NCBI GenBank assembly: GCA_964016885.1
Contig: CAXHJY010000320.1
Span: 1-64,000, forward strand
From: Eledone cirrhosa
Lineage: Eukaryota
Reading direction: 5' to 3'
Length of the DNA: 64,000 bases
In this document: in pieces, positions 35,328-36,072 of the stretch
Position numbering within the stretch: the stretch's first letter is position 1
Layout: every line of letters begins with the position of its first letter
The notes under the pieces: model-generated
What the model was told of the DNA's origin: nothing
What the model saw: only the letters and a program-made list of their open reading frames with translations
Database searches by the model: none
Position numbers and translations under genes: made by a program

Positions 35328-35329
<2 letters not shown>

Positions 35330-36072
35330 CATTATGAAGAGAGAAGAAACATTTAGATATAATTAGTAATAAAATGTATCATACCTAAACTGTTCCTAAA
35401 TTCCTCGACTACGTAGTTTCGTGGCATAAACAAAAACAATATATCAAAGATATAGAGTCCTTGCGAGGTCTGCCAACTTATCAAGAGGATACCTCATTTT
35501 ACTAGTCTCAAGAACGCGTCTACACGACGTGAGAAAGAATCCCAAAAGGCGGAGGGGGAGATAGTCACGCGATATAACGGTCGAGAAACAGAGCTAAGCC
35601 TCTTATAACCACGAAAAAAATACCACGGAGGCGGAGGGGGTATTCATATCGAGGCCGTAGAAGAGGTAGTGAAGAAGGCGAGAAGTATGAGTAATGGAAG
35701 CTTTCCAGTTGTCCCCACACCTCAAAGATTGCTCGACCAGAGGGAGTTATTAATACATTTAGAAACACACAGATACATGCGGACACACACATATATACAT
35801 GAATGCATCCGCACCCAACTGTGAGTTAAGGGTGCCAACTTCACCGATGTTGCTCAATGAATGACTGGGACAGACCAATTCAGTTTGAACCAGACTGAAC
35901 CAGTATCAGAGTTAAAAATACATTATGAAGAGAGAAGAAACATTTAGATATAATTAGTAATAAAATGTATCATACCTAAACTGTTCCTAAATTCCTCGAC
36001 TACGTAGTTTCGTGGCATAAACAAAAACAATATATCAAAGATATAGAGTCCTTGCGAGGTCTGCCAACTTAT
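35328..36072 (-). mobile_element. hammerhead-bearing partial-tandem element (Penelope pseudo-LTR/retrozyme-like), 591-bp period
   Basis: 35328-35481 is repeated, identical by eye, at 35919-36072. The repeated part contains the hammerhead. Both ends abut (TA)n. Confidence 0.8.
35402..35489 (-). ncRNA. type-I hammerhead ribozyme motif with U3-A8 core and extended stem II
   Basis: UCCUC-UUGAUAA-GuUGGCA[44-nt insert]UGCCAC-GAAA-CUACGUAG-UC^-GAGGA. Predicted cleavage is between 35407 and 35406. Confidence 0.78.

Follow-up and report, generated by a model that had tools for sequence, protein, structure and literature searches.

A young hammerhead retrozyme family of Eledone cirrhosa with Penelope-type insertion ends and a young candidate helper

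The stretch of Eledone cirrhosa DNA analysed here (contig CAXHJY010000320.1 of assembly GCA_964016885.1, positions 1 to 64,000, 64,000 nucleotides in all; referred to as the window) contains on its minus strand, at 35327-36072, a short element that carries a hammerhead ribozyme. An earlier note took it for a hammerhead retroelement, young and non-autonomous, whose monomer has 591 nt, and this description fits all genome evidence collected in this work, cleavage and the RNA remaining predictions. The locus raises the question of how such a unit is copied, and by what enzyme it is inserted. The answer that we consider probable is that the element is a retrozyme of the class without long terminal repeats (non-LTR), whose transcripts are cut to monomers of 591 nt and closed into circles, which the reverse transcriptase and endonuclease of a Penelope-like element then copy in trans into (TA)n microsatellites.

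The hammerhead and the 591-nt unit

The complete type I hammerhead occupies 35402-35489 of the minus strand. Stem I (35489-35485 with 35406-35402, UCCUC/GAGGA) forms five of its five pairs, and the core UUGAUAA (35484-35478), the GAAA and the GUC at the predicted cleavage site (35407/35406) are all as claimed in the earlier note. Helix II (35477-35421) is 57 nt long and has one bulged base, which is U in the window copy and C in most copies (17 of the 159 sampled copies have exactly the window sequence). Helix III (35417-35408) is the palindrome ACUACGUAGU, for which a dimer of -14.3 kcal/mol is predicted. The 3-8 pair, G10.1-C11.1, A15.1-U16.1, H17 and three helices were found, and a hammerhead descriptor had one match in the 48,348 non-simple bases of the window and none in 200 dinucleotide shuffles. 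The Rfam search matched no hammerhead family, for which the long helix II and the variant core may account.

Unit positions are numbered from window position 36072, which is position 1, so that the cleavage site lies between positions 75 and 76. The direct repeat spaced 591 bp is identical at 154 of 154 positions and continues for at least one further base. The upstream hammerhead copy (35993-36072, minus strand; predicted site 35998/35997) does begin at A6, without the 5' strand of stem I and UUG. The partial tandem had been taken for the design of the element, which is not borne out: other arrays reach about five units per arm, and the window copy, consisting of one 591-nt unit plus 155 nt, is a 5'-truncated product with a single arm that stops at the fixed end E1. 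The missing UUG is thus due to truncation and is not a feature. An assembly artefact can be dismissed as well, because thousands of exact half-motif copies occur across the genome and the reversed-pattern controls gave 0.

The predicted monomer lies between the two cleavage sites (35407-35997, minus strand). It is highly structured (folding z = -5.63, none of 100 shuffles folding equally well), has a GC content of 42% (246/591), and is non-coding, as had been claimed, with no stop-to-stop frame of at least 100 amino acids inside the unit. A long hairpin is predicted 3' of the cleavage site (35336-35406, with a second copy at 35997-35927, both on the minus strand); it takes up the GAGGA strand of stem I and stops just before E1. 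The end E1 itself (35327-35336, minus strand) is at unit position 155, 80 nt past the site, and is joined to (TA)n. It is followed in the unit by a 165-nt 'tail' segment with conserved hairpins (35753-35917, minus strand; unit positions 156-320), in which, out of 45 predicted pairs, four are changed on both sides and many differ by A-U/G-U swaps. The other end, E2, is at 35753 on the minus strand and is internal in the window copy. The target microsatellite, (TA)n/(TATG), is at 35286-35326 on the 3' side of the element and at 36073-36320 on its 5' side. In unit positions 435-525 (window about 35638-35548) there are two copies of CCCCCTCCGCC, which are kept in both subfamilies described below, with a CACG-containing motif nearby; together they are possibly an internal promoter, but this is a guess.

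Insertion ends and the candidate helper

A search of the species' own genome (3.0 Gb) gave 1,314 candidates, of which 40 were scored; these contained 154 matches, nearly all 99-100% identical and many spaced 591 bp. Exact patterns, which also take in an older sister subfamily, were found 7,681 times for the ribozyme 3' half and 6,976 times for the 5' half with U3-A8, corresponding to about 7,000 hammerheads. The C3-G8 version was found 0 times genome-wide, by either of the two patterns used, hence U3-A8 is fixed in the family and there is no within-family covariation at positions 3 and 8. The first 100 listed places represent about 48 insertions within 53 Mb; extrapolated to the whole genome, this gives an estimate of some 3,000 insertions. 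The core UUGAUAA is present in 156 of 159 full copies (68 loci). The sister subfamily (1,825 candidates) is about 74% alike and has the core and the two-end architecture in common; at its loci L132-L160 the period is 575-594 nt. In 23 sequences from the two subfamilies stems I and III and the proximal part of helix II are almost invariant, while the pairs of distal helix II are kept through one-sided changes.

The 3' ends of the insertions cluster at about unit position 155 (E1) and at 316-322 (E2, 245 nt past the cleavage site) and are joined to (TA)n, whereas the 5' ends are scattered. Exact E1/(TA)n junctions number 2,368 genome-wide; 1,091 E2 junctions were counted on the forward strand, the reverse count being inflated by overlapping matches. 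The 127 insertions analysed are a non-uniform sample, in which 19 were collected for their identity to the window, while the ribozyme pattern supplied 48 and the E1 junction 60; the last set, comprising 60 of 69 listed places beyond 53.4 Mb, is blind to E2/E2 insertions and able to show E1/E1 insertions. Sixty-two of the 127 are inverted, one arm ending in E1 and its partner in E2, and the same end was never found twice (0). The remainder consists of 41 single-arm E1 insertions, 15 single-arm E2 insertions, five two-strand insertions with one standard end, and four older ones that fell below the identity filter. The arrays are short tandems of up to about five units per arm, 26 arms exceeding two units. 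Two fixed 3' ends, an inverted 5' arm, variable 5' truncation and a microsatellite target make up the signature of mobilisation by Penelope-like elements, and we regard this type of mobilisation as almost certain for the retrozyme. Any target-site duplication would be masked by the (TA)n flanks. The short E2 arms in L191, L205, L211 and L228 stop at unit positions 250-252, at the base of a long hairpin, which suggests stalling of the reverse transcriptase (RT) induced by structure.

An open reading frame (ORF) with RT and GIY-YIG domains is absent from the retrozyme unit and present in the L161 family, a Penelope-like family of the same genome. It was obtained from a GIY-YIG search of the genome (10,596 candidates, 150 of them scored). 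The copy at L161 (G000:C1:145868317-145877571) has the structure pLTR-ORF-pLTR, where pLTR stands for pseudo-long terminal repeat, and contains an RVT_1 domain, just below the curated cut-off, together with a GIY-YIG domain. Its hammerhead is of the U3-A8 type, its unit measures 4,979 bp, its targets are (TA)n and its tail is 68 nt long; the two ends of the family lie 82 and 150 nt past its own cleavage site. At 20 fetched loci of this family 13 inverted insertions have both ends visible and all 13 were judged by eye to be mixed-ended. Over the region spanning RT and endonuclease (EN) the commonest open frame is 775 amino acids, and copy number is high. In the RT region 119 scored copies are 98-100% identical in protein, which makes the family as young as the retrozyme. 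The linker CxxxxCxxC would place L161 in the Neptune/Nematis type by the description in PMC8557442 (Craig et al. 2021), an assignment made from this motif.

Three other Penelope-like families (L112, L178 and L129) have U3-A8-type cores, L129 with GCAA for GAAA, and a fourth, L164, has a canonical hammerhead core (both judged by eye). Since several local Penelope-like families share U3-A8-type cores, the partner is not pinned to one, and we give even chances to the L161 family being the partner. In L083 a retrozyme insertion was observed inside the (TA)n tail of an L161-type pLTR-like sequence, and in L064 one lies close by.

The template and the A>G skew

The cleavage site is crossed by 170 of 194 arms. 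Because the arms cross the site and 26 of them exceed two units, a cut linear monomer copied once is excluded as template. In 46 young insertions the variants were classified in columns covered by at least three units, columns near indels and segment ends having been removed before this and all other variant counts: 79 were present in all units, 60 in one unit and five in some units. Eight of the all-unit variants are private to one insertion, and six of these eight are found on both arms. This all-or-one pattern shows that each insertion passed through a single unit that was then re-expanded, both arms alike. The template was very probably a single-unit RNA, of which a circle is the simplest cause, and a circle made by the ribozyme is probable. 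L248 has a T/A/T/A/T alternation at one column, as would arise from a dimeric circle, but this is a single case. Among the sequencing runs, none of which is on record as RNA, four out of six were examined, all as contigs; a single 621-nt contig (591 + 30) in one run is expected from a tandem repeat and from a circle alike and was not used. The 35998/35407 junction is present in thousands of genomic arrays, so divergent RT-PCR alone cannot demonstrate a circle.

The variants that were shared by all units differ in kind from those found in one unit. In the discovery set (53 young among 65 insertions) A>G accounts for 23 of 45 all-unit variants and for 6 of 54 one-unit variants; in the replication set (48 young among 60) the corresponding values are 16 of 40 and 2 of 59. 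When the changes were polarised with 12 older insertions, several apparent A>G changes turned out to be ancestral G. Read on the ribozyme strand, the polarised and pooled all-unit variants comprise 24 A>G, 11 T>C, 12 G>A and 8 C>T among 74, five of the 74 being unpolarised or other. The A>G excess is significant given base composition (p = 4e-4, or p = 7e-4 without the variants unique to L092) and relative to the one-unit variants (A>G 9/116; p = 6e-6). The insertion L092 has seven A>G among nine shared changes, on both arms. In a Penelope-like control one A>G was found in 26 shared variants. The 5' neighbour of the A>G sites is U in 12 cases, C in five, A in four and G in one, and the depletion of 5' G has p = 0.015 (28 unpolarised sites). 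ADAR enzymes prefer mostly U and rarely G as 5' neighbour. Judged from these sequence patterns, editing by ADAR is the somewhat likelier cause of the skew.

Taking these observations together, the following course may be proposed. The ribozyme strand of the arrays would be transcribed and the hammerheads would cut, probably as helix III dimers. The monomer would then be ligated into a circle, and some molecules might undergo A-to-I editing. A Penelope-like protein, the presumed source of the observed pattern of ends, would nick both (TA)n strands and prime at the internal positions 155 and 320 of one RNA, one site per strand, E1 and E2 being the two putative RT start sites. Each complementary DNA would go round the template, a single unit as shown by the variants and presumably a circle, for a variable length; joining of the 5' ends would give inverted insertions, and survival of one arm would give copies like that of the window. 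In its most specific form the proposal is that of an ADAR-edited, viroid-like circle, primed at two sites by a Penelope-like RT-endonuclease dimer that rolls from both nicked strands, with editing written into the germline as the largest source of haplotypes; in this complete form we hold it only tentatively.

Several results weigh against this account, in whole or in part. The most stable predicted structure differs from the active ribozyme fold, which would cost 3.5 kcal/mol for the hammerhead by itself, 5.4-8.8 when flanks are included and 8.8 within the circle, and the covariation score of the 23 sequences was not above that of shuffles (318 of 500 reach it), the core stems being invariant rather than covarying. 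No clear peak of 5' ends was seen at the cleavage site (3 of 196, a count also reached at seven other positions), and run-off of the RT at the site was rejected for want of a clear excess there; likewise, where 5' ends are joined to (TA)n no spike was found at the site, and the ends follow microhomology. As regards the helper, the second half of L263, a duplicate Penelope-like copy, carries the first end twice, and comparison of the retrozyme with partner pLTRs gave only low-complexity matches in a sample of the 10,596 GIY-YIG candidates (blastn, 50 GIY-YIG loci; nhmmer, 79 Penelope-like loci). In published experiments hammerhead mutants of an anole element had no effect on insertion in vitro (PMC11167929), and eight of nine Xenopus retrozyme dimers did not cleave, one of nine cleaving (bioRxiv 10.64898/2026.07.22.740005). 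As for editing, previously unseen sites of the replication set, taken alone, have five A>G and six T>C (p = 0.76), although A>G at these sites is still above the one-unit variants (p = 0.012); recurrence of A>G across haplotypes is borderline (p = 0.066); and the A>G sites are no more often paired than other A's (p = 0.23).

For the editing step the alternative is that the skew reflects selection for RNA structure, in which changes from A-U to G-U are tolerated, or a mutation bias. The many A-U/G-U swaps between the subfamilies and the weak replication at new sites would suit it, and it is a serious if less probable explanation. C>T, which should be equally tolerated, is not in excess (8, compared with 12 G>A), and neither the seven A>G changes of the single L092 template nor the depletion of 5' G is accounted for.

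For the template, the rival that survives best is an uncut linear multimer transcribed off an array and mobilised by the Penelope machinery, the hammerhead being a passenger or cutting rarely. The dispensability of the anole hammerhead in vitro, the energetic cost of the active fold, the continuation of arms across the cleavage site and the five partial variants are compatible with it. However, a variant of one donor unit should then turn up in a single unit of each daughter arm, whereas the private variants occupy all of the three to eight units; every truncation would shrink the arrays; and the core would hardly have persisted in 156 of 159 copies and in two subfamilies that share about 74% of their sequence. 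We consider the uncut multimer improbable. Still less probable is a cut linear monomer from which arrays are built by repeated end-to-end template jumping of the RT. It predicts the same single-unit homogeneity, and three of 196 5' ends are exactly at the site, but no junction indel was found in 159 aligned copies, whose sampling favoured intact junctions, and the stops show no clear pile-up at the site. Amplification at the DNA level, as a satellite or a rolling-circle (Helitron-like) DNA element, would account for identical units in tandem but not for two fixed ends in strictly mixed pairs, variable 5' truncation, a strand-specific A>G skew and one-strand, G-U-compatible conservation, and is very unlikely.

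Known relatives, neighbouring elements and significance

Non-LTR retrozymes are already known as a class, and so is the U3-A8 core. The reading of this core as a compensatory variant, made in the earlier note, stands, but the variant is not new: the same covariation has been reported in nature (Perreault et al. 2011, PMC3088659) and in the Cercyon elements, Penelope-like elements of Schistosoma (PMC4209133), and is stated to be active in vitro. In Schistosoma it occurs in about 1,300 motifs, and a circular template was proposed in the same paper (PMC4209133). As a difference from these cases, U3-A8 is fixed in the present family and common to several local Penelope-like families.

Like the metazoan non-LTR retrozymes (Cervera and de la Pena 2020, PMC7229834; Li et al., bioRxiv 10.64898/2026.07.22.740005), the family consists of non-coding tandem units with one type I hammerhead each, GC below 50% and no LTR features. 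Its 591-nt unit is above the 150-450 bp given in PMC7229834 and inside the 51-972 bp of bioRxiv 10.64898/2026.07.22.740005. It differs from the published retrozymes by the U3-A8 core and the very long helix II, and the sections consulted do not describe, for retrozymes, insertions that are dispersed, have inverted arms and stop at two fixed ends. Xenopus retrozymes were linked to pLTRs, and for 24 of 57 Xenopus families there are matches to known elements, in nearly all cases Penelope-like (bioRxiv 10.64898/2026.07.22.740005), whereas the present family is without homology to the sampled pLTRs. RNA circles of retrozymes were shown in coral, mussel and axolotl (PMC7229834). A circular RNA template and a Penelope-like helper were proposed for metazoan retrozymes (PMC7229834; bioRxiv 10.64898/2026.07.22.740005); the mobilising enzyme of animal retrozymes and the circle as transposition template are hypotheses in these two papers and in PMC4209133.

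With the endonuclease-bearing Penelope-like elements of Neptune/Nematis type (PMC8557442; Frangieh et al. 2024, PMC11167929) the family has in common 5' truncation, partial tandems, an inverted 5' arm, a tail at one end, (TA)n targets and, near the 3' end, a hammerhead whose helix III is palindromic. Unlike these, it has no ORF, and its tail is 165 nt compared with the quoted 30-40 bp (68 nt in the local autonomous family). In published work a Penelope-like protein in purified form started from two sites inside the RNA, which define the tail, and extended both strands (PMC11167929). The non-autonomous Chlamys elements, among them MRC1 (PMC8557442), likewise form multicopy head-to-tail insertions, but their 3' ends are in general similar to those of their autonomous partners, and canonical hammerheads are lacking from most Chlamys elements.

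The surroundings of the window copy consist in part of other repeats. A separate 515-bp repeat (34771-35285, plus strand), with 94-98% matches in many fetched loci, carries the end of a reading frame, whose C2H2-like motif (CSVC...HTRSAH, stop) precedes the (TA)n. We take it to be the 3' end of a long interspersed nuclear element (LINE), and the retrozyme is inserted in its TA tail. Two copies of a LINE RT region, presumably RTE-like, are at 30687-33083 and 36321-38260 (plus strand), their 3' ends recurring at a distance of about 5,176 bp. Further transposon-like frames are at 12605-13162, 41072-42253 and 50300-52559, which we assume to be a piece of a mariner-type transposase and two other LINE RT regions.

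In the literature on octopus retrozymes, retrozyme editing and twin priming on circles, mostly open papers whose supplements may list the family, neither this family nor its signatures were reported. What appears to be new is the trace of its mechanism that a young retrozyme has left in the genome, next to an equally young candidate helper, together with an editing signature that has moderate support. The genome contains a retrozyme and a Penelope-like family that are both very young and share their insertion signature; for reconstitution it offers a defined RNA with two predicted start sites, a target and a candidate protein. The strict rule of one end per arm ties the two start sites known in vitro to the two target strands and may explain the inverted, tailed insertions of Penelope elements. 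If the A>G skew is due to editing, it would be a way for RNA editing to become a heritable change of the DNA, and if the edited circle is the true template, thousands of young insertions would each record their own template molecule.
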